From: a bacterium
Lineage (GTDB): Bacteria > Patescibacteriota > Minisyncoccia > UBA6257 > GWB1-50-10
Length of the DNA: 56,088 bases
Assembly: GCA_021812365.1 (NCBI GenBank)
Contig: JAKANQ010000003.1
Coordinates: 1-56,088 of the forward strand
Direction of reading: 5' to 3'
The notes beneath the pieces were generated by a model, which saw only the letters and a program-made list of their open reading frames with translations, ran no database searches and was not told the origin of the DNA. A program made the position numbers and the translations under genes. Each line of letters begins with the position of its first letter. Within the stretch, counting starts at the first letter, position 1. Of this stretch, positions 25,666 through 44,622 are shown piece after piece.

Positions 25666-26328
25666 ATGAGCTCGTCTTTTTGGCTTGGTTCAAGCAGTGT
25701 GGGAATGCGCTCGTATGATGTTGATGCGCACTACGAAGATGGTTATGTTTGGTTAGGGAATAACAGTTGGAATAGTCCGCTCAATGCTGGCGCACGCTAT
25801 AAAGATGGTTGCGTGTGGCTTGGGGCAAGTGATGTGGGAAATCGTTCGTATGATGTTATCGCTCACTACGAAGATGGCTATATTTGGTTAGGGAATAACA
25901 GCTGGAATAGTCCGCTCAATGCCATCGCACGCTATAAAGATGGCTGTATGTGGCTTGGGGCAAGTGATGTGGGAAATCGTTCGTATGATACGTTTGCTCG
26001 GTATGATGGACCGGACGACGGCGCCGCAGCTGCTGTAGTTTTATTGCTGTTACTGAAAATCAATACTGAATCAACCTCGCAAGAGTCATCTTCGGATCAG
26101 GAAATTTCGGATTCCGGGTCTCGTGATTCCGAGGTCTGCGAAGAAGACGTGTGGGCGAGTAATTCATGCGAATCAATTTCCGAACCCTCATATGATGCGC
26201 AATCTGCTTCGGGGCGAGGAAATGAGGTTCCACAAGGAGGAAGTGAGTTTGAGCTGTTTGTGATCATGGCGATTATTTTACTTTGTGCTACGTTGGTTCA
26301 TTATATTGGGCCCATGTTTCATAATTAG
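25666..26328 (+). CDS. Five-repeat (WLG) protein with hydrophobic helix, acidic Ser linker and C-terminal TM; beta-flower-like
   Basis: TTGACA-17-TATACT promoter, AAGGAGG SD, WLG at aa 6/29/51/74/96, then GAAAAVVLLLLLK. Confidence 0.7.
   Translation: MSSSFWLGSSSVGMRSYDVDAHYEDGYVWLGNNSWNSPLNAGARYKDGCVWLGASDVGNRSYDVIAHYEDGYIWLGNNSWNSPLNAIARYKDGCMWLGASDVGNRSYDTFARYDGPDDGAAAAVVLLLLLKINTESTSQESSSDQEISDSGSRDSEVCEEDVWASNSCESISEPSYDAQSASGRGNEVPQGGSEFELFVIMAIILLCATLVHYIGPMFHN
25729..25988 (+). repeat. 135-bp tandem duplication inside the WLG-repeat gene
   Basis: CACTACGAAGATGG... at 25729 and 25864, near-identical copies. Confidence 0.85.
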
Positions 26329-26390
26329 TTTTTTGCAATGCAAAAGGCCGACGTTATATGTCGGCCTTTTTTTGTATTATACTCATATAT

Positions 26391-27140
26391 ATGTATAGCG
26401 CACCAAGAGCTCAGAATAAATTCAATCCAAGCAGTCGAGACCCCTTTAAACTAAGTCGAAGCAAGATAGAGAATTTCATCCGATGTCCTCGGTGTTTTTA
26501 TTTGGACAGGAGGCTTGGTATTGATATTCCTCCCACGCCGTCGTTCACGCTGAACAACGCGGTTGATGCGCTGCTCAAAAAGGAATTTGATATTCATCGC
26601 GCGAAACATATCCCGCACCCCATCATGGATGCGTATGGAATCGATGCGGTCCCATTCGAGCACGAACGCATGGATGCGTGGCGCGATGCGATACGGCGCG
26701 GCATTCAATTTTTATACGAATCGGAGAACCTTCTTATCACGGGTGGTATCGATGACGTATGGGTGAATTCAAAAGGAGAACTTATCATCGTTGATTATAA
26801 GGCGACCTCAAAGGCCGGAGACGTGACGCTTGAAGGGTCTGGATGGGAGATGAGTTATAAGAGGCAGATGGAGATCTACCAATGGCTTTTCAGGCAAAAC
26901 GGTTTCAAGGTGAGCGATACCGGATACTTCGTATATTGTAACGGTACTACCGACAGAGAAGCCTTCGATAAAAAATTGGAATTCAATGTGACGCTTCTTC
27001 CGCACAAAGGGAGTGATGCGTGGATTCCGCTTGCATTGAAAAAAATACGCGCGTGTCTTATGAGTGATACTATTCCCGCGGCAAGTCCCTCGTGCGATTA
27101 TTGCGCATATCGAAAAGCGGCTCAAAAGGCTGAGATATGA
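26391..27140 (+). CDS. Stand-alone PD-(D/E)XK (Cas4-like) nuclease
   Basis: LSRSKI...CPRCFY, GGIDD, VDYKAT, YKRQMEIYQWL, CDYC. Confidence 0.85.
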   Translation: MYSAPRAQNKFNPSSRDPFKLSRSKIENFIRCPRCFYLDRRLGIDIPPTPSFTLNNAVDALLKKEFDIHRAKHIPHPIMDAYGIDAVPFEHERMDAWRDAIRRGIQFLYESENLLITGGIDDVWVNSKGELIIVDYKATSKAGDVTLEGSGWEMSYKRQMEIYQWLFRQNGFKVSDTGYFVYCNGTTDREAFDKKLEFNVTLLPHKGSDAWIPLALKKIRACLMSDTIPAASPSCDYCAYRKAAQKAEI

Positions 27141-27701: not shown

Positions 27702-27710
27702 TCCTTTGAC

Positions 27711-27736
27711 AAAACCCCCGGGAATCCGGGGGTTTT
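27711..27736 (+). terminator. Intrinsic terminator
   Basis: AAAACCCCCGG-GAAT-CCGGGGGTTTT. Confidence 0.75.
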
Positions 27737-27816
27737 GTATTTCCCATTATTTCACTTTTTTGTCAACTATTTCAAGCATTGCACGCATATTCGATTTTCT
27801 GGTATTATCGGATTAT

Positions 27817-28347
27817 ATGAAGCAAGAAACATCAGCTCAAGGAGTGAGCGGACGCGGCAAAAAAGCCGTGCGGTATGCGGTCATCGCGGTCGTTGGTATT
27901 GGATTGGTCTGGTTCATCTTTGCGCGCGTAGCATCAAAGAGCGGTGCGGGCTCGGGTAATGCTATTTCCGAATCGCCGCTTGTGTTGGCGGGAAAGAACA
28001 CCATTACATTGGATGATCAGTTGTTCGGAAATACGGTTTCCATAAAGTCGATTGACCTTGCGAATGACAGTTGGGTCGCTATTCATGAGGACCTTGATGG
28101 AAAACCCGGAAATATTCTCGGAGCGGCATGGTTTCCCGCGGGTGTAAGTTCGGGTGTGGTTGAGTTGCAGCGTCCGACGGTTGATGGCGCGACGTACTAC
28201 GCAATGCTCCATGCGGATAAAAAACCGCGCGGAGAAGACGGCCACAAGGTGTTTGATCTGAAAGTCGATGTTCCTCTGACCGATGAATCGGGGCAGCCTC
28301 TGATGGCAAAGTTCATGACGACCGCGCATCCAGCGCCGCAGCAATAA
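27817..28347 (+). CDS. Membrane-anchored extracytoplasmic beta-sandwich protein (DUF7282-like)
   Basis: N-terminal TM; V.IKSIDL...SWVAIHED..GKPG.ILG; YYAMLH.D; FD...D.P. Confidence 0.6.
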   Translation: MKQETSAQGVSGRGKKAVRYAVIAVVGIGLVWFIFARVASKSGAGSGNAISESPLVLAGKNTITLDDQLFGNTVSIKSIDLANDSWVAIHEDLDGKPGNILGAAWFPAGVSSGVVELQRPTVDGATYYAMLHADKKPRGEDGHKVFDLKVDVPLTDESGQPLMAKFMTTAHPAPQQ

Positions 28348-29241: not shown

Positions 29242-29460
29242 TCGAAATCCACAGCCCCTGTTGAACTTTTACATTTAAGTTTGCTATGATTACAAGTGAA
29301 ATCAGATTCTGCCTTGTGAGGGGGCGGAATCGATTTTTTTTATACACATAATTGGGAAGTGAATCGTATGGTATCATTGATGGGAAGAACAACTCGGTCC
29401 GAAAGCGTTTAACATACGGGAGCAACTACACTCTCTCGCGACTATAACACTAAACCAATT

Positions 29461-29967
29461 ATGGACGAACAATACAAAATAAATCCGGAAGAAAAGCGAA
29501 AGTCAGGTCTTTGGAGGTTTTTTGGAGGACTTGTGGCAATTGTGGTGCTCGTGTTCGCGGGACTTTGGGGTATGGGTCAGTATGAACATTATCTTCGCGC
29601 CCAAAGCGTGCAGAAGCTTGCCGATGCGTTGGCTGAGGATGAGAAGGCCACGTACGCGCAAATGATGGCAGACACCTACGGAGGAAAGACTCCGCAGGAA
29701 ACGCTTTCGATGTATATTGCCGCGGTTGAAAAAGGAGATTATGTGCTTGCAAGCAAGTATTTTGTGCTGGATAAGCAGGCTGATGAATTGGCAAGCTGGA
29801 AGGGAACGAGGCCTGAGGATGTGACGAATGCGATTGTATTATTTAAGCAGGGTATGAATTCAGTTGGATCTTATTCTTGGGATAAGAAAGCATTTTCAAT
29901 TGAAAAACCAATTGTATTCGATTTCACACTGTATCCTAATGGTATTTGGAAGATAATAGAAATTTAA
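29461..29967 (+). CDS. Membrane-anchored hypothetical protein, co-oriented with the downstream PLC-like gene
   Basis: N-terminal TM, DTYGGKTPQETL..YI.AVEKGDY.LASKYFV, ends GIWKIIEI; 19-nt gap to the next gene. Confidence 0.8.
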   Translation: MDEQYKINPEEKRKSGLWRFFGGLVAIVVLVFAGLWGMGQYEHYLRAQSVQKLADALAEDEKATYAQMMADTYGGKTPQETLSMYIAAVEKGDYVLASKYFVLDKQADELASWKGTRPEDVTNAIVLFKQGMNSVGSYSWDKKAFSIEKPIVFDFTLYPNGIWKIIEI

Positions 29968-29986
29968 CAATTTAAGACATATCTAT

Positions 29987-32900
29987 ATGAAACTCAGGAA
30001 TATCGTTTCTTGCGGTTTAGTTTTAGTTGGGGTACTTTCCTCTTTTCGCGTTGCGCTTGCGTATGACGAAAAGACAACGCATCCCGCGCTTACGAATGAG
30101 ATTATCACGTTCTATAACCTTACCCATCCGGAATCAAAGATTACGGATGAAGAAAAAGGATGGCTCATTGAGGGGAGCAGGTTTGAGGACATTCCTCCGA
30201 GGTGGATCAACCATTTCTATGACCCCGTTCATAACACGGGATGGACCGGCAGCGGTGAGGGAAAAATCTCCGCAAATGCGGTACAGATCATATCCCAATT
30301 CGGTCTGTCACAGGACAAGCCTTTATCCGCGGTCCAGTGGGCCAACGATGATCTGCAGCAAGGGGATTATTCGCGTTATGACGGCAATCAAACGTGGAAG
30401 CAGGCGCTTAGCATGTTTGTGGCGGGGAAGACGCGGGAGGCATATATCGCGCTTGGCCACACACTGCATCTATTGGAGGATATGGCGGTGCCTGACCATA
30501 CGCGCAATGATACTCACGCGCCAATACCAGGTGTTGATAGTGGTTCCCCCTATGAAAGTTATGCGACGCGATTCACCATTTCAGGAATCAAAAATCTGAA
30601 TATCGCAAAAAATCTTGCGAACGCGAAAAGTAGCGCTGTACGAACATCCTCGATTGAGGAAAGTCTTGCTCTGCTCGCAACCTATTCAAACAAATATTTC
30701 TTCTCAAAGGACACCATCAATGACCCTACATTCGGTTTTCCCAAGATAGTTGCCGATGATGGAAGCTTTGGATATGGCATGGATGAGAGTGGAACCAAAT
30801 TTCCTTTGGTAAAGATTAGACAAATAAATATAGGAAATCACAAGTATGCAAGGATATACAAACTTGATGGAGTTCAGTCGGTTATCTTTAATTCGTATTT
30901 CTCCCATCTTTCGAAGCAGACCGTATTGCACGGTGCGGGAGTACTAGAGCTTTTTTATGGAAGTATCGAGAATGCTCGAATCGCGAAAGAATTTCCAAGC
31001 CATATCTATAAGCTTGATATGTCCATCTTCCGATTGCCCGTGGTCTCACTTTATGGCGAGGCAGTTAAGGTGAGGAATTATGTAGCAACAAGCTTTGATA
31101 CCGCTAAAAATTTCTTTTCCGGTTTGGCGGGAACGGTATTCAACAGTAATTCTTCTAATGTTCCAGAGAGTGCTGTGGCCGAGAACAATTATGCAAATGT
31201 AGATGTTCCTTCTTCATCTACTAATCCTGCCTCAGGTCAAGGCACCCAATCCGTAGAGGAAGAGCCCGAGACTCCTCTTGTTGATCTTCAAACCGCTGAT
31301 ATCGCGGATGAGCCGGCGGCAGATATTGGGTCAGCTCCAATCGCAATAGCCACTGTTACAACGACAATATCAGCACAAGAAATTCATAACAGCGCGGTGA
31401 GTTCAACTGTTTCACAACCGAGTGTGATACAGCCAATGCAATATTCTCATTCCGTTTCCGGCGGCGGCACTGTCTCGAGCGTGAGTGAGCCTAATAGGCC
31501 GAATTGCGTTTCCGACGGGGTAAGAATAACCGAATTCGTATATGACGCTCCAGGTTCCGATGATGGCAGGGAGTGGATAGAGATTTTAAATTCCGGAAAT
31601 GAAACAGCGACGGTATCTGAAATGAAGTTGGTGGAAGGCGGGTCAAATCATTCAATCAGATCGGAGCGTGGGGTTTCCTCGCTCGCGCCGGGTTCATATG
31701 CGATCATCGCGAATGACGCAACGCGGTTCATCTCCGAGAATAGCGGATATTCTGGCGGAGTTTTTAGTGCGTCATTTTCCCTTTCCAATGATGGAGAAAA
31801 GGTTGCTCTGAAATGCGGCGACGCTTTGATAAGCAGTTTCGAGTATGCATCAAGTACCGGAGGTCACGGTGACGGAAATTCGTTGCAATTGATTGATGGC
31901 GTGTGGCGCGCTTCGATTCCCACAATAGGAATGGAAAATATATATGCTATTCCGACAACCAATCAAATTCCCGAAGCGGTAGTTAATTATTTTCCGACAA
32001 ATCCAAAAGTTGGCGAGACGGTTCAATTGAGTGCCGCGTCCTCAACGGATGATGGACATATCGTTTCTTATCGATGGACATTTGGAGACGGGTCTTCGGA
32101 GAACTCCTCGAATCCTATCGTTTCGCATGTATTTGCCAATGAGGGCATTTATGCCATCGAGCTTATCGTATCGGATGATATAGGAGCGACTTCAACCGTC
32201 AGTTCCGTAAATATTCCCGTGGACGCGGAAAGGACAAGCAGCGGGAGCCATGTTGTTATAAGCGAGGTTCAGGTCGGAGGCCAGAAAGCCGACGATGAAT
32301 TCATAGAACTTTACAATCCGACAGATTCCATCATTTCTTTGGGCGGTCATTCGCTCCAATATTTGAGCGGTTCCGCAACGTCGACGGATTGGATAAAGGA
32401 TAGGAGCGTAAAAAAGAATTTCGAAGACGTTCAAATCTTGCCGCATAGATTTTATTTATTGGTTAATTCGGATGCGACATCTTCCTTGAAGAACAGAGCC
32501 GATGCGGTATATTCGAGCTTTTCCTTATCAGGAGATTCAAGGGGAGCAAGCATTTTCCTTGTAAGCACCACTTCTTATATTCTGGGAATTGACGACCCCT
32601 TGATTGCGGACAGTATCTCATATGGAGATATAAATCTTGAAAGCGTGTCAACCTCTTCACGCCCCACGTCGGGAAAAAGTTTAGAGCGGAAAGCAAACCT
32701 TGACGCCACCTCCGAATCAATGAGCAGCGGCCGAGATGAGTTTTTGGGAAATGGATATGTATCCCGCAATAGTAAGACTGATTTTGTGGTGCGTCTTTCA
32801 TCAAACCCTCAAAACTTCCAAAGCTATCCGGAACCGCGCGTGGCGCCCACCGTTCCTTTGGGAGCTGGCGGAGTTACGAGTACGATAGCCGAATATAGTT

Positions 32901-33934
32901 CAAGTACCAATTCCATTTCATTCAAGTGGGAGCCATCTACGGATTTTTGCGATGGTGATTCCGGAATGGTATATGAGCTTTACGATATTGGTTCAACATC
33001 AACTAAGCTGATCGCAACAATAGCCGAAAATACATATATCTTGAATTCAGTGGAGGCGGGACATATATATTCTTTCGGATTGCGTGCTCGTGATGTTGAT
33101 GGATTGCGGTCAGCGACAAGCTCATTTTCCGTAGATGCGCCGCTTCCGGAAAATAAAATTCCCACCGTCTCATTCCTTTATTCGCCCATAAACCCGAATG
33201 CGGGCGATGACGTTTATTTTGATGGAACTTCCTCATCCGATTTGGACGGTCGCATTACGGAATATCAATGGGATTTTGGAGATGGCACTGTTACCAGTTC
33301 CACTAATGCGACAACAACTCATGCATTCGATGATGCGGGCGATTATGATGTGCGGCTTACCATTACCGATAATAGGGGTGCTGTGGTTTCCTCCGTTTCT
33401 TTGGTCTCGGTTCCCTCAAGAGCGCCCACGTCGCTTGTATATTCTCAGGAAGATGTGAGCGGCGGAGAGGTCAATATGTATTATCAGGCAAATGATGTGG
33501 TTCAATATCTCGGCACCGACATGAAGGGCACTTTTGCAAAGGCAAAGATATATTACTCATCTTGCTGCGGTTATTATCCAACGCAGAAAATGGCCATTTA
33601 TGAAAGTGATTCATATTCAGGCGCGCCGAGAGTAAAGGTAGTTGAAGCAAGCGCAATGATCTTGAGCACGGGATGGCAAACATTTGTCGGACCCGCGTAT
33701 ACCTTTGCGCCCTCGAAGCATTACTGGCTTGTAGCTCCCGCCGGCTATTCCGCGTACCCACTTCATCCGGCAAAGGGTACGCTAAATACACCCCTCTCCA
33801 TTGATTACAAGCCATTCGCGTTTAATGGCAATTATATGATGCCGCTTGATTTTTCAAGCGGGGAAGACACTAAAAACTTCTTTCACGATCCCGCCGATGG
33901 CAAGATGGCGTATCAAATCATCACAACGCTGTAG
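29987..33934 (+). CDS. Secreted multidomain protein: Zn-dependent phospholipase C/P1-nuclease-like domain, two lamin-tail domains, two PKD domains, FN3-like domain
   Basis: Signal peptide ending ALA; YDEKTTHPAL, NHFYDP, LGHTLHLLEDMAVPDH, YESY; ITEFVYD...EWIEI; VISEVQ...EFIELYNP; WTFGDG and WDFGDG. Confidence 0.8.
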   Translation: MKLRNIVSCGLVLVGVLSSFRVALAYDEKTTHPALTNEIITFYNLTHPESKITDEEKGWLIEGSRFEDIPPRWINHFYDPVHNTGWTGSGEGKISANAVQIISQFGLSQDKPLSAVQWANDDLQQGDYSRYDGNQTWKQALSMFVAGKTREAYIALGHTLHLLEDMAVPDHTRNDTHAPIPGVDSGSPYESYATRFTISGIKNLNIAKNLANAKSSAVRTSSIEESLALLATYSNKYFFSKDTINDPTFGFPKIVADDGSFGYGMDESGTKFPLVKIRQINIGNHKYARIYKLDGVQSVIFNSYFSHLSKQTVLHGAGVLELFYGSIENARIAKEFPSHIYKLDMSIFRLPVVSLYGEAVKVRNYVATSFDTAKNFFSGLAGTVFNSNSSNVPESAVAENNYANVDVPSSSTNPASGQGTQSVEEEPETPLVDLQTADIADEPAADIGSAPIAIATVTTTISAQEIHNSAVSSTVSQPSVIQPMQYSHSVSGGGTVSSVSEPNRPNCVSDGVRITEFVYDAPGSDDGREWIEILNSGNETATVSEMKLVEGGSNHSIRSERGVSSLAPGSYAIIANDATRFISENSGYSGGVFSASFSLSNDGEKVALKCGDALISSFEYASSTGGHGDGNSLQLIDGVWRASIPTIGMENIYAIPTTNQIPEAVVNYFPTNPKVGETVQLSAASSTDDGHIVSYRWTFGDGSSENSSNPIVSHVFANEGIYAIELIVSDDIGATSTVSSVNIPVDAERTSSGSHVVISEVQVGGQKADDEFIELYNPTDSIISLGGHSLQYLSGSATSTDWIKDRSVKKNFEDVQILPHRFYLLVNSDATSSLKNRADAVYSSFSLSGDSRGASIFLVSTTSYILGIDDPLIADSISYGDINLESVSTSSRPTSGKSLERKANLDATSESMSSGRDEFLGNGYVSRNSKTDFVVRLSSNPQNFQSYPEPRVAPTVPLGAGGVTSTIAEYSSSTNSISFKWEPSTDFCDGDSGMVYELYDIGSTSTKLIATIAENTYILNSVEAGHIYSFGLRARDVDGLRSATSSFSVDAPLPENKIPTVSFLYSPINPNAGDDVYFDGTSSSDLDGRITEYQWDFGDGTVTSSTNATTTHAFDDAGDYDVRLTITDNRGAVVSSVSLVSVPSRAPTSLVYSQEDVSGGEVNMYYQANDVVQYLGTDMKGTFAKAKIYYSSCCGYYPTQKMAIYESDSYSGAPRVKVVEASAMILSTGWQTFVGPAYTFAPSKHYWLVAPAGYSAYPLHPAKGTLNTPLSIDYKPFAFNGNYMMPLDFSSGEDTKNFFHDPADGKMAYQIITTL

Positions 33935-33967
33935 AAATAATGCAAAACCCCCGCTCATAGCGGGGGT

Positions 33968-34285
33968 TCAATTTTCGGCGATGCCTTGTTTTCGGCAATG
34001 GCCGGGTTCGTGGAGGGTTTTGCAGACGGTGCAAATTTTTCGGGGGGTTGCCTGCTCGATTTCGAGATCCAGCTTGCAATGATTGCAAATAAGCGTGTGC
34101 TCATCGGTGACCCAGAGCGGTCTTTCGCACTCGGGGCAGCACATTACTTCGATGGGTCTGTATTTCAATGGCACATAAATGTTGCACCGTAAACAGCACA
34201 ATTTTGAGTTGTCCGCCATAAATATAGGACGTCTGCAGCAGGGGCAGAGGAGAATGTCTATGTCGCCTAAGTGCGTGCGTGTCAT
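33968..34285 (-). CDS. Multi-zinc-ribbon protein
   Basis: Two CPxCxRP...LxCxxC units plus CTVC...H...HC; GGAGG SD before ATG 34285. Confidence 0.65.
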   Translation of the reverse strand: MTRTHLGDIDILLCPCCRRPIFMADNSKLCCLRCNIYVPLKYRPIEVMCCPECERPLWVTDEHTLICNHCKLDLEIEQATPRKICTVCKTLHEPGHCRKQGIAEN

Positions 34286-34439
34286 TGGCCACCTCCGCGG
34301 TTTTTTCAAAGTATCTATATTCATGCTACACCCAAGAATATAGATTGCAAAATGCGGGAAAGGGATTACTATTCCAGTAGATACTTTCCATATTGATTCA
34401 AAGAAACGTAAGTAATGTCACGCAGAAAGGAGGCGCAGA

Positions 34440-35009
34440 ATGCGCTACATTGCGAAAATGGCGAGTTTCGTTTCCATACTTGTGTTTTGCCTTGGGGCGT
34501 ATGCCAGTATGCCCTTGCGAGGCCCGCTTCTTCGGAGCGTGACCATAAAGACCAACAAGGGGCAGGCGACTGGTGTTATTTTGAGGAAGGGGTTTGTGCT
34601 CACCAATTTCCATGTGCTTCATACCTATTCTGACGTGAAGGTGGATGGAAAAGAGGCGCGCATCGTGAAGGCTGACCCCAAGAACGACTTGCTCTTGCTC
34701 GCGGTCGAGACGGATGATGTGCCTACGCTTTTTCCCGCCCACATCATCACGCAGGATGAAAAGATTGTGGTCATCGGAAACCCGCTGGGGCATAAGGAGA
34801 TGATTCTGCACGGCCGCATTACCGACATCGCTGATAATCTTATCTATATCGACGCTCACGTTTTTTTCGGGAGTTCCGGAAGCGCGGTCTACAACGAGAG
34901 GGGCGAGTTGGTCGGCATCGTGCGCGGCATCGAAGGCGAGGAGGACGACGGATTCCCTTATGGAGTTGTGATTCCCGTCGACATCGTGCTGCATTTTCTT
35001 TCGAATTGA
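34440..35009 (+). CDS. Secreted trypsin-like (S1) serine protease, no PDZ
   Basis: Signal peptide; TNFHV (His), NDLLLL (Asp), FGSSGS (Ser), GNPLG; SD AAAGGAGG. Confidence 0.85.
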   Translation: MRYIAKMASFVSILVFCLGAYASMPLRGPLLRSVTIKTNKGQATGVILRKGFVLTNFHVLHTYSDVKVDGKEARIVKADPKNDLLLLAVETDDVPTLFPAHIITQDEKIVVIGNPLGHKEMILHGRITDIADNLIYIDAHVFFGSSGSAVYNERGELVGIVRGIEGEEDDGFPYGVVIPVDIVLHFLSN

Positions 35010-41291: not shown

Positions 41292-43583
41292 ATGAAACAA
41301 ACACTCAAAATACGGGGAATGCATTGCGCCTCATGCGCGGTCATCATCGGCAAGGAATTGAAAAACGCCGAAGGTGTGCAGTCGATTGATGTGAATGTGG
41401 GCACTGAGAGCGCAAAAATAGATTTTGATGAGAATAAGACAAGCGTCGAGACTCTTTCGAAAAAGCTGGAACCGCTCGGGTATGGGTTCATTATGGAAGA
41501 TGAGCATACAGGTCATTCCGGCGGAGATATGGAACACATGGACCATGCGGGGATGAATATGCAAAAGAGCGAGAAACTCGCTGAGCTTGCAGAAATGAAA
41601 CGCAAACTTATAGCTGCAATTCCGCTTGCGGCACTCAGCCTTTTTGTGATGGCGTGGGATATTTCGGCGAAGCTCGGATGGGTGCGGGGCGCGCCAGCCA
41701 GCGTGAGTGCATTCTTCAGCTATCTTTTGCCGCTTGCCGCAACCTATGTATTATTCGTGGTGGGAAGACCATATATCACGGGGGTCTATAGATTTTTGCG
41801 GTTTGGGAGCGCGAACATGGATACGCTTGTGGGTATCGGCACGCTTGTCGCATATCTCTATAGCATCATCGTTTCCGCATTGAAGGGACCGCTCGCGTCT
41901 TTCATAAACGTAGAGAATCTCTATTTTGATGTGGTCATCATCGTTATCACGTTCGTCTATCTCGGCGAATATCTTGAGGCAAAATCAAAATTGAAGACAG
42001 GCGATGCAATAGAAAAGCTTTTGAATCTACAAGCGAAGTTCGCATTGGTATTAAGGGACGGAAAGGAAGTTGAAATTCCAATATCCGAAGTAATGCACGG
42101 CAATCTTATCGTAATAAAGCCCGCGGGTAAGATTCCCGTTGACGGAGTGATTACCGAAGGGTCTTCATATATCGATGAATCAATGATAACGGGAGAGCCG
42201 CTTGCCGTGAAAAAAACCGTGAATGACGCGGTGGTCGCGGGTACGATAAATACGAGCGGTTCGTTCGTGTTCAAGGCAACGAAAGTCGGTTCCGAAACGA
42301 TGCTCGCGCGCATTATCCAGATGGTTGAGGAGGCGCAGGGAAGTAGGGCGCCCATTCAGGCGCTTGCGGACAGAATCTCGGGAATTTTCGTACCCGTGGT
42401 GCTTTCGGTGGCCTTTGCCTCACTTGCCGCGTGGCTTCTCATCGGTTCCCATTATCTTCCATTTTCACAAGCGCTTTCATTTGGGCTCGTGTCGTTTGTG
42501 AGTGTGCTGGTAATCGCGTGTCCGTGCGCCTTGGGTCTTGCGACGCCCACCGCAATCATCGTGGGTGTGGGTAAGGGCGCTCGAGAAGGAATCTTGATCA
42601 AGGACGCCGCCACGCTTGAGAAATTGCACAAAGCGAATGTGGTGGTGGTAGACAAAACAGGAACTATTACGAAGGGGAAACCCGAGGTGATATCTGTAAA
42701 AAACCTTTCATCAAAATCTGAGAATGAAATTGTCGCCCTCCTCGCATCATTAGAGAAAAAATCAGAACATCCGCTTGCGCACGCGATTGTGTCGTATGCA
42801 GATGAGAAAAAAATCACTGCCTTCGTGGTAGAAAATTTTGAAGCGTTGAAAGGCAAGGGCGTGCGCGCGAATATCGGCGGCATTCAATATTACGCAGGCA
42901 ATGCGCGCCTTATGGAGGAATTGCGTCTTCCATTTGATAAAAAAGTCATTGAGGAAGAAACGCTGAATGGTAAGACGCCTATCATTCTTGCGACTGCGCA
43001 AGAGGTATTGGGCATCGTCTTGGTCGCGGATGCAATCAAGCCCGAAGCGGTGGAAGCGGTAAGGCGCCTCCACGCGCTTGGCATGCGCGTTATCATGCTT
43101 ACGGGCGATGACAAGAATACCGCAGCCTATATTGCAAAACAGGCGGGCATAGATGACGTGGTGGCTGAAGTGATGCCGGAGGATAAGTTGAATAAGATTA
43201 AGGCGTTACAGGCGGAGGGCAAGATCGTGGTGATGGCGGGAGACGGTGTGAATGACGCGCCCGCGCTCGCGCAAGCCGATATCGGCATCGCGATGGCGAC
43301 AGGAACGGACGTGGCAATAGAGTCCGCGGGCATCACGTTGCTGCATGGCGATATTTCAAAATTAGTGAAGGCAATCTCGCTTTCCAAGCTTACTATGCGC
43401 GGCATCAAGCAAAATCTTTTTTGGGCGTTCTTCTACAACATCATTGGTATACCGCTCGCGGCGGGATTGTTCTATCCTTTGTTCGGGTGGCTCTTAAATC
43501 CGATATTTGCGGGCATGGCGATGGCGTTTTCGAGCGTATCCGTGGTTGGCAATTCATTAAGACTTAAAACAATAAAACTGTAA
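41292..43583 (+). CDS. copA: Copper-exporting P1B-1 ATPase
   Basis: GMHCASC HMA, His/Met linker, CPC, DKTGT, SEHP, GDGVNDAP, YN, MAFSS. Confidence 0.95.
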   Translation: MKQTLKIRGMHCASCAVIIGKELKNAEGVQSIDVNVGTESAKIDFDENKTSVETLSKKLEPLGYGFIMEDEHTGHSGGDMEHMDHAGMNMQKSEKLAELAEMKRKLIAAIPLAALSLFVMAWDISAKLGWVRGAPASVSAFFSYLLPLAATYVLFVVGRPYITGVYRFLRFGSANMDTLVGIGTLVAYLYSIIVSALKGPLASFINVENLYFDVVIIVITFVYLGEYLEAKSKLKTGDAIEKLLNLQAKFALVLRDGKEVEIPISEVMHGNLIVIKPAGKIPVDGVITEGSSYIDESMITGEPLAVKKTVNDAVVAGTINTSGSFVFKATKVGSETMLARIIQMVEEAQGSRAPIQALADRISGIFVPVVLSVAFASLAAWLLIGSHYLPFSQALSFGLVSFVSVLVIACPCALGLATPTAIIVGVGKGAREGILIKDAATLEKLHKANVVVVDKTGTITKGKPEVISVKNLSSKSENEIVALLASLEKKSEHPLAHAIVSYADEKKITAFVVENFEALKGKGVRANIGGIQYYAGNARLMEELRLPFDKKVIEEETLNGKTPIILATAQEVLGIVLVADAIKPEAVEAVRRLHALGMRVIMLTGDDKNTAAYIAKQAGIDDVVAEVMPEDKLNKIKALQAEGKIVVMAGDGVNDAPALAQADIGIAMATGTDVAIESAGITLLHGDISKLVKAISLSKLTMRGIKQNLFWAFFYNIIGIPLAAGLFYPLFGWLLNPIFAGMAMAFSSVSVVGNSLRLKTIKL

Positions 43584-43584
43584 T

Positions 43585-44622
43585 ATGACTGAAACAAAAA
43601 AATATCAATTTCATGTGAATGGAATGCATTGTAGGTCCTGTGTGCTTCTTATTGAGAGCGAGCTTCGCAATGCGCCGGCAATCCAATCTGTAAAGTCCAA
43701 TCTGGAAGATGAGACCGTGGAGGTGGTTGGCGATTTTGGAAATAAGAGCAGGGAAGATATCGCGCGCGAGTTCACTCACATTCTTTCCAAACACGGATAT
43801 GGCGTCTCATCCGAGGAGATGCAAGATATGGACAACAAGGGTAAGTGGAGTGATTTTAAGATAGCGGCTCCTATCGCACTCGCATTCCTCGTTCTTTTCG
43901 TGGCGCTTCAAAAGATGGGTTTGGTGAATCTTATCAATGTTGACCATATCTCGTATGGAACGGCATTCATCATCGGTATCATCGCATCGCTTTCGAGTTG
44001 TATGGCAATCGTAGGAGGACTCCTGCTTTCGATGTCCGCGACATTTGCCAAAGAAGATGATAAGGTGAAGCCTCAGATACTTTTTCACGTGGGGCGCATC
44101 AGCTCATTCTTCATCTTGGGCGGTATCATTGGGGTCATCGGCGCTACATTCCAATTGAATCAGTTTTGGAGTTTTGCTCTTAGTTTTGTAATCGGTCTTG
44201 TGATGTTGATACTCGGATTGAATCTGCTTGATGTGTTCAGTTGGACGAAGAAGGTGCAGCCCGCGATGCCGAAATTTTTAGCGGAACGCGCATTCAATGT
44301 TTCAAAGTTGAACCACACGCTCACGCCATTTTTAGTGGGTATTGCCACATTCTTTCTTCCTTGCGGATTCACGCAATCAATGCAGATATATTCGCTCTCT
44401 ACCGGAAGTTTTTTGATAGGAGGGCTGACTATGTTGGCATTTGCGCTGGGAACGTTTCCAGTGCTCGCGCTCATCAGTTTCAGTTCATTCAGCCTTGGTA
44501 AGGGGAGAAGGGCGAGCGTCTTCTTCAAGACCGCGGGACTTATCGTGGTTGCGTTCGCATTGCTGAACATCATGAATGGTCTTGTGGTTGCCGGCATCAT
44601 TCCGCCGCTCTTCAGTTTTTAA
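43585..44622 (+). CDS. HMA-domain plus DsbD_2/TauE-like membrane protein
   Basis: GMHCRSC, SLSSC, FHVGR, FLPCGFTQ. Confidence 0.85.
   Translation: MTETKKYQFHVNGMHCRSCVLLIESELRNAPAIQSVKSNLEDETVEVVGDFGNKSREDIAREFTHILSKHGYGVSSEEMQDMDNKGKWSDFKIAAPIALAFLVLFVALQKMGLVNLINVDHISYGTAFIIGIIASLSSCMAIVGGLLLSMSATFAKEDDKVKPQILFHVGRISSFFILGGIIGVIGATFQLNQFWSFALSFVIGLVMLILGLNLLDVFSWTKKVQPAMPKFLAERAFNVSKLNHTLTPFLVGIATFFLPCGFTQSMQIYSLSTGSFLIGGLTMLAFALGTFPVLALISFSSFSLGKGRRASVFFKTAGLIVVAFALLNIMNGLVVAGIIPPLFSF

Follow-up and report, generated by a model that had tools for sequence, protein, structure and literature searches.

The 56,088-nucleotide stretch of DNA analysed here (hereafter the window; contig JAKANQ010000003.1 of assembly GCA_021812365.1) stems from a bacterium of the candidate phyla radiation (CPR; GTDB lineage Patescibacteriota; Minisyncoccia; UBA6257; GWB1-50-10) and carries on its forward strand two neighbouring genes, which are the subject of this report. 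The first (29461..29967) encodes a 168-aa single-pass membrane protein with an N-in orientation and an extracytoplasmic domain, here called the partner, and the second (29987..33934) encodes a 1315-aa exported multidomain protein that starts with a signal peptide followed by a putative catalytic head of the tri-zinc phospholipase C (PLC) type. Both the boundaries of the two open reading frames and the 19 nt that separate them are as given in an earlier interpretation made from the letters of this stretch (the sequence-only reading) and in the list of open reading frames. Upstream, a terminator-like hairpin at 29305..29331 (+ strand; 11-bp stem and T-run, consensus match only) closes the gene of an HhH-GPD glycosylase and delimits the two-gene unit on its 5' side, and downstream a G+C-rich hairpin between convergent genes (33945..33969, no strand assigned) forms a terminator-like 3' boundary. 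Bracketed by these terminator-like hairpins, the partner and enzyme genes are a self-contained predicted operon. The source genome comprises 626 kb at 98% completeness with one copy of the module, and the relatives all belong to the Patescibacteria, which bears out the assignment to the CPR.

Predicted fold and putative metal site of the head

The putative catalytic head spans residues 26–345 of the large protein (30062..31021, + strand) and was delineated by family profile, structural model, Foldseek and conservation. Residues 26–345 alone yield no Pfam match even at an E-value of 10, the full-length window protein likewise stays below every Pfam threshold for PLCs, and a single-sequence search of the PDB with the head returned nothing useful. 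The head family comprises at least 828 clusters in a collection of 5.8 billion proteins, in which every named member is from Patescibacteria, and public annotations describe these proteins as 'lamin tail domain-containing', 'PKD domain-containing' or 'hypothetical'. We aligned 29 diverse heads and built both a family profile and an AlphaFold model on this alignment. The Pfam family Zn_dep_PLPC (PF00882) is touched by 18 of these 29 heads (E-values up to 1; best 1.7e-5) and the S1-P1 nuclease family (PF02265) by none, and the only meaningful matches of the profile in the PDB are Bacillus cereus PLC (1ah7) and Listeria PlcB (8cqm), with E-values of 0.008–0.02. The head model reaches a predicted local distance difference test (pLDDT) value of 88.4 and a predicted template modelling score (pTM) of 0.87 and adopts an all-alpha PLC fold. 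When this model was compared with the PDB by Foldseek, the top 16 matches were zinc PLCs only, i.e., B. cereus phosphatidylcholine-preferring PLC (PC-PLC), clostridial alpha-toxins and Listeria PlcB, at a probability of 1.00, E-values of about 1e-3, TM-scores of up to 0.60 on the target and identities of 10–14%, while the best S1/P1 nuclease, 3w52, scored an E-value of 1.6 and a probability of 0.2. The sequence-only reading had proposed a head of the PLC/P1 type, and the profile and structure-prediction checks run on the head support a tri-zinc PLC/P1-superfamily domain, predicted to lie on the PLC side rather than on the P1 side.

The metal site can be considered at the level of single residues. 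The signal peptide of the large protein (residues 1–25; 29987..30061, + strand) is predicted to be cleaved at VALA/Tyr26, leaving Tyr26 as predicted mature N-terminus, and the mature sequence YDEKTTHPALT follows directly after the predicted cleavage at ALA|Y26. All motifs quoted earlier are present in the translation, namely YDEKTTH, NHFYDP (residues 75–80), LGHTLHLLEDMAVPDH (residues 156–171) and YESY (residues 189–192), and their conservation goes far beyond chance: H32, D68, H76, H161, D165, H171, H177, and E190 are invariant in 184 non-redundant relatives, as are E67, R72, R173, D175, and S187. The mature residue +1 is aromatic (Y, F or W) in 182 of the 184, the predicted signal-peptidase site of the AXA type has A, S or G at position -1 in 179 of 179 cases and a small residue at -3 in about 93%, and the median leader length is 25 aa. 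Residue 1 (Trp1) of PLC and P1 ligates zinc through its α-amino group; for this reason, the constant cleavage geometry strongly suggests a functional metal site. In the HMMER alignment to 1ah7, H76, H161, D165, and H171 fall on the crystallographic ligands H69, H118, D122, and H128, and E190 aligns with the Glu of PlcB that is equivalent to Glu146. H32 and D68 lie outside of the HMMER-aligned region; they are invariant and stand in the right order for candidate equivalents of His14 and Asp55. The position equivalent to His142 of PLC aligns to Gly186, so that this ligand is missing from its usual place, and the invariant H177 may replace it. The putative ligand set is composed of Tyr26 via its backbone, H32, D68, H76, H161, D165, H171, E190, and, as a candidate, H177; judged from conservation and alignment, these side chains and the free amino group of Tyr26 would build the tri-zinc site. 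Profile, model and ligand pattern argue for a head that is very probably an active zinc phosphodiesterase of the PLC fold. The opposite view, in which the protein is purely an adhesin and its head binds without any catalytic activity, can point to the long Ig-like stalk and the variable tip, which are adhesin-like. It is hardly credible given that the metal-ligand positions and the amine-freeing cleavage site are invariant in 184 diverged relatives, a pattern expected from selection for catalysis.

Compared with B. cereus PC-PLC (1ah7) and Listeria monocytogenes PlcB (8cqm), which are single-domain PF00882 proteins, the head shares the all-alpha fold, the HFYDP and H-x3-D-x5-H motifs aligned to ligands, the Sec export and a mature N-terminal aromatic residue that is available as zinc ligand, provided that cleavage occurs as predicted. 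It differs from both by the low identity of 10–14%, by a Tyr instead of a Trp as residue 1, by a His that follows 6 rather than 13 residues later, by the Gly at the His142 equivalent with H177 as candidate substitute, by its position below the Pfam threshold, by a three-stranded sheet (residues 261–292) and a 38-residue helix (residues 298–335) that are inserted in the model relative to known PLCs, and by a stalk of about 1000 residues. Furthermore, PlcB is kept latent by a propeptide, whereas here a conserved partner gene stands in its place. The alpha-toxins of Clostridium perfringens and Clostridium absonum (1ca1, 1olp), which are structural matches of comparable quality, resemble the large protein in that a zinc PLC head is followed by one or more extra domains directing it to the target membrane. 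They contain one C-terminal PLAT-like membrane-binding domain, while the head described here is followed by a linker, LTD, PKD and FN3 domains and a tip, and Pfam found no PLAT domain in the large protein. It is well supported by profiles and modelling that the family represents a predicted PLC-lineage enzyme that shares the fold and most of the ligands, that is new in its architecture and in its dedicated partner, and that falls short at the Pfam threshold and at the His142 position. In the literature, no paper describing the stalked head family or its partner pair was found.

The low identity, the additional invariant residues and the insertions imply that the substrate pocket may differ from that of PLCs. 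This opens the proposal that the head cuts a different envelope polymer with phosphodiester bonds, for example teichoic acid, lipoteichoic acid or capsular phosphodiesters, either of the host or of the producer itself, for which the identity of just 10–14% to characterised PLCs, the extra invariant E67, R72, R173, D175, and S187, and the inserted beta-hairpin and long helix could be cited. We regard such an activity as highly improbable, as the PLC fold is not known to act on polymers of this kind and as a linked envelope-biosynthesis gene is absent at related loci.

A nucleic-acid substrate has to be weighed more carefully. The head could be a P1/S1-like nuclease or nucleotide phosphodiesterase that digests extracellular or host nucleic acids for a nucleotide-auxotrophic cell, with the lamin-tail domains (LTDs) of the stalk helping to hold DNA. 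S1/P1 nucleases such as TBN1 (3w52, PF02265) belong to the same superfamily, have the tri-zinc chemistry in common with the head and also show an N-terminal aromatic residue with a His soon after, and the distance of 6 residues between the two in the head is closer to P1 than to PLC. Moreover, an SNase domain is fused in two relatives, P0023 and P0074. Extracellular nucleases of the ExeM/Xds type carry an LTD and thereby resemble the large protein in combining a secreted phosphoesterase with a lamin-tail domain, and loss of the LTD lowers the activity of ExeM in vitro (PMC6085458). Their catalytic domain, however, belongs to the EEP superfamily, which is unrelated to the zinc PLC fold, and no partner gene is described for them. 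Because LTDs accompany nucleases of the ExeM type and two relatives carry SNase, we assign some probability to this alternative and nevertheless judge it unlikely: 3w52 remains at a probability of 0.2 in Foldseek against 1.0 for 16 PLC entries, the S1-P1 nuclease family is matched by none of the aligned heads against 18 for Zn_dep_PLPC, and the S1/P1 nucleases are absent from the PDB matches of the profile, which are PLCs only. Since sequence and structure both put the head with the PLCs rather than with P1, a phospholipid is the substrate that we would cautiously favour.

Stalk, upstream partner and pairing of the two genes

The sequence-only reading had placed a Ser/Pro/Thr-rich stalk, two LTDs, two PKD domains and a fibronectin type III (FN3)-like domain behind the head, and this order of domains is recovered, with the FN3-like domain only at a sub-threshold score. 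All of these segments lie on the + strand. A low-complexity linker with 35% Ser/Thr/Pro (residues 380–505; 31124..31501) is followed by LTD 1 (residues 511–620; 31517..31846; Pfam E-value 3e-12), PKD domain 1 (residues 659–743; 31961..32215; 7e-19), LTD 2 (residues 750–856; 32234..32554; 9e-12), the FN3-like domain (residues 971–1041; 32897..33109; Pfam fn3 at an E-value of 0.008 and 16.8 bits vs a cut-off of 25), and PKD domain 2 (residues 1056–1136; 33152..33394; 7e-21). The protein ends with a fast-evolving tip domain (residues 1140–1315; 33404..33931), a candidate target-recognition module. For this tip of about 175 residues no relatives were found in Pfam or the PDB, and it is detectable in just the 8 closest relatives, at 29–37% identity vs 56–62% for their heads. 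The 185 relatives selected by their heads all share the constant head, whereas their tails differ. The tip probably recognises the surface of the target. Apart from the signal peptide, the large protein contains no hydrophobic segment able to anchor it in a membrane.

The partner was thought earlier to be a membrane-anchored extracytoplasmic protein, and the analysis agrees with one transmembrane (TM) helix, an N-in orientation and an outside domain. Its Lys/Arg-rich N-terminus precedes one strong hydrophobic helix (Kyte-Doolittle (KD) value 2.32, residues ~20–38), from which the orientation follows; the TM helix is annotated at residues ~17–38 (29509..29574, + strand) and extends up to residue 70 in the form of a helical stalk. 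In the model of the partner (pLDDT 92.9), residues 16–70 form one unbroken helix (pLDDT >95) that covers TM segment and stalk, and a compact α+β domain follows, which according to profile, fold and conservation would be an NTF2/DUF4878-like ectodomain (residues 71–168; 29671..29964, + strand). Invariant residues of the partner are D71, G74, G75, P78, T81, L82, Y158, W163, and K164. The partner family includes at least 2399 clusters, all from Patescibacteria, one of which is named DUF4878 by NCBI. While the window partner itself has no Pfam match, DUF4878 (PF12870) is matched by four of nine partner relatives (best E-value 8.6e-4). The partner profile finds designed NTF2 proteins in the PDB, weakly, at E-values of 0.3–0.4, and the top Foldseek matches of the model are NTF2-like carriers of hydrophobic ligands (OCP-CTDH, designed steroid binders), which are non-significant (E ≥0.4). 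Profiles and model are thus consistent with an NTF2/DUF4878-like identity of the partner at weak scores. Partner-like paralogues that are unlinked to a head (e.g., G183:C1, G004:C46, G265:C12, G204, G225, G283) match only positions 65–160 of the profile. They are found mostly in one family (f13), sometimes in headless genomes, and may be orphan partners or members of a related DUF4878-like family.

The pairing of the two genes was studied in 80 related loci from species genomes, 75 of which contain enough upstream sequence. In 70 of these 75 loci, the gene immediately upstream of the head gene encodes a partner homologue in the same orientation, at distances ranging from -22 to +65 nt, and no third gene conserved with the pair was found across related loci. 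Among 301 genomes of the class, 76 carry both genes, 18 the head only, 9 the partner only and 198 neither (odds ratio 93, p = 4e-43; this and the other phyletic associations were computed without phylogenetic correction), and in several of the genomes with one gene only, this gene is located at a contig end or belongs to a divergent sub-family. Partner and head evolve at similarly slow rates, with p-distances of 0.56 and 0.55, respectively. A mirror-tree comparison gave a correlation of co-divergence between partner and head of rho 0.39, vs 0.34 for a covalently linked stalk domain and head; both are weak because the distances are saturated, and the comparison is suggestive only. The adjacency and the co-occurrence support the upstream gene as a dedicated partner, as proposed before the gene-pair conservation check was run. 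A divergent sub-family of heads (e.g., G010, G067, G071, G150, G158, G249, G256, G287, G292) matches the head profile in two pieces, at about positions 5–90 and 112–340, with a differing stretch at about 90–112, and most of these genomes contain no partner match at E-values up to 1e-5.

Tandem diverged copies of the partner occur in three loci: L078, L076 (three copies) and L042 (two copies), with 31–47% identity in the latter two. L078 (4588-7515) contains, in this order, a partner copy, a head remnant of 97 aa that breaks off shortly after HFYDP, a second partner with 35% identity to the first and a full head gene. From the tandem copies and the remnant, whole cassettes appear to duplicate and subsequently to decay. 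Polymorphic toxin systems include toxin-immunity pairs with immunity proteins of the NTF2 fold (Imm-NTF2 families). The locus resembles them in the small adjoining gene for a putatively NTF2-like protein beside a predicted secreted hydrolase, in the tandem diverged partner copies and in the head remnant. It differs from them in that the partner is encoded upstream, is membrane-anchored and is as conserved as the enzyme, and in that a constant head is combined with a varying tail in the 185 relatives, which were chosen by their heads, whereas the toxin domain of polymorphic toxins varies on a constant delivery part. Pfam matches to the Imm-NTF2 families were absent from the partner family.

Distribution, lipid metabolism and proposed mechanism

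The head is present in 94 of the 301 class genomes (87 of 279 of high quality), i.e., in about 31%, and the module is consequently not essential to the lifestyle of these bacteria. Outside of the class, a phylum-wide sample of 351 genomes contained 2 carriers, both from one family, and altogether the head/partner family was found in 297 species genomes. A search of the source genome for ketoacyl synthase (KAS) of fatty-acid synthesis, PlsY, PlsC and CdsA found none of them, which indicates that this bacterium cannot make fatty acids or phospholipids; DgkA and gpsA are present. The sequence-only reading had taken gpsA as a sign of glycerolipid handling. The gene is real, yet it is unlinked to the module, from which 11 kb separate it, and is surrounded by enolase, EndoIII and DinB-type genes, and as PlsY, PlsC and CdsA are missing it feeds no phospholipid pathway here; we have therefore dropped it as support. 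CdsA exceeds the cut-off in 2 of the 301 class genomes and is essentially missing from the entire class, so that no member can turn diacylglycerol back into phospholipid. DgkA and the module occur together less often than expected (18 observed vs 28.7 expected, p = 0.004, uncorrected for phylogeny). A salvage of diacylglycerol followed by resynthesis is unsupported in view of the class-wide absence of CdsA and the anti-correlation of DgkA. The missing genes of lipid synthesis make this a lipid-dependent bacterium, which counts in favour of the explanation preferred below. The former idea of a lipid-harvesting enzyme is weakened by the distribution of CdsA, DgkA and the module itself. Considering the absence of CdsA, the negative association with DgkA, the presence in about 31% of the genomes and the near-absence outside of the class, the module is a class-restricted accessory and not a general lipid-uptake machine of CPR bacteria. 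These phyletic results correct an over-reading of the module as "the" lipid-uptake machine.

A more direct form of lipid acquisition would be a device for lipid piracy, in which diacylglycerol or intact lipids are freed from the host by the PLC head and ferried by the NTF2-like partner into the membrane of the producer. The class lacks lipid synthesis and the best structural neighbours of the partner are NTF2-type carriers of hydrophobic ligands, both of which would suit such a device. Still, we rate it as quite unlikely: no route leads from diacylglycerol to phospholipid anywhere in the class when CdsA is missing, DgkA is depleted rather than enriched alongside the module, just about 31% of equally auxotrophic genomes possess the module, and the partner domain measures only about 95 residues and has non-significant fold matches (E ≥0.4).

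The best explanation as a whole, in which we place somewhat more trust than doubt, is a surface-held accessory zinc phosphodiesterase that is directed against the membranes of neighbours and is tethered and/or restrained by its partner. The enzyme would be exported by the Sec pathway and signal peptidase would cut before Tyr26, so that removal of the leader would activate the head by completing the zinc site described above. The head would be displayed on the stalk of about 1000 residues, composed of the Ser/Thr/Pro linker and LTD-PKD-LTD-FN3-PKD, the fast-evolving tip of which would probably bind the target surface. The partner would hold its small NTF2/DUF4878-like domain on the long helix above the producer membrane and would most likely bind the head, keeping the enzyme on the cell and/or inactive and thereby sparing the scavenged membrane of the producer. 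Binding of the head by the partner is the simplest reading since the enzyme lacks an anchor of its own and the partner is membrane-anchored and faces outwards, and we consider it fairly likely that the partner binds the enzyme. Restraint is plausible since the producer membrane consists of the same scavenged lipids; whether the partner would act as an inhibitor and/or a tether is in our judgement an evenly balanced question. The likeliest substrate would be the phosphodiester of phospholipids in the membrane of a neighbour or host, which might be weakened or remodelled by the cleavage or from which phosphorylated head groups might be released. A supply of diacylglycerol for resynthesis is unlikely in a class without CdsA. 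The closest idea in the literature concerns the CPR predator Vampirococcus, for which it was suggested that the phospholipids of its host may be degraded by a phospholipase that it secretes (PMC8080830).

Several points count against this explanation: the head escapes all Pfam models when searched alone and has Gly186 in place of one zinc ligand, the LTDs and the two SNase fusions recall nucleases, the scores for the partner fold are weak, about two thirds of the class manage without the module, and the public sequencing runs that hold the locus are only four, all of DNA from mine-drainage metagenomes, with no transcript data among them. A bolder version would make the pair a class-specific contact weapon of CPR bacteria of the Paceibacteria type, in which the PLC, aimed by the tip, makes diacylglycerol locally in the host membrane; the membrane would thereby be destabilised and become prone to fusion, opening the host to the transfer of lipids and cytoplasm, while the NTF2-like partner would serve as resident inhibitor-tether whose invariant DTYGGKTP loop plugs the zinc cleft until the host is contacted. 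We offer this version as a speculation that is doubtful at present; if true, the partner would be the first 'immunity' protein for a zinc PLC.

The stalked PLC-partner pair is a testable candidate for the way in which these bacteria attack the membranes of neighbours, and it bears on how CPR/Patescibacteria acquire lipids and gain entry to their hosts. Parcubacteria/Paceibacteria dominate groundwater, and we know of no host-attack enzyme that has been characterised for them. Known zinc PLCs either depend on a propeptide or are not known to protect the producer at all; a partner with a proven role as inhibitor or tether would therefore be a new way of controlling such an enzyme. Both the soluble head of about 320 residues and the partner ectodomain of about 130 residues are directly expressible and assayable.

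Neighbouring genes in the window

A PADLOC run gave no matches, and a scan against NCBIfam returned merely irrelevant sub-threshold matches. Just downstream of the two-gene unit, a small exported trypsin-like serine protease (Trypsin_2, E-value 2e-18) is encoded at 34440-35009 (+ strand), which is not kept with the pair at other loci. Between them, convergent with the large gene, lies a gene on the opposite strand (33968-34324, -) for a protein of 118 aa that is rich in Cys, has several CxxC pairs, resembles a zinc ribbon and weakly matches Trm112p. On the upstream side, a Cas4-like PD-(D/E)XK nuclease (26358-27140, +) and a membrane-anchored DUF7282 protein (27706-28347, +) are likewise not kept with the pair elsewhere. 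They are preceded by a gene (25666-26328, +) whose 220-aa product consists of repeats of the unit 'ARYKDGCVWLG...SYDV.AHYEDGY.WLGNNSWNSPLNA', then an acidic tail rich in Ser and a hydrophobic stretch at the C-terminus; its sole match is a marginal one to Reg_prop. Further downstream (41292-44622, +), two adjoining open reading frames start with GMHCxSC heavy-metal-binding motifs and probably encode a P-type ATPase for metal transport together with a related protein; a putative ATPase of this kind would be in keeping with a sample from mine drainage.

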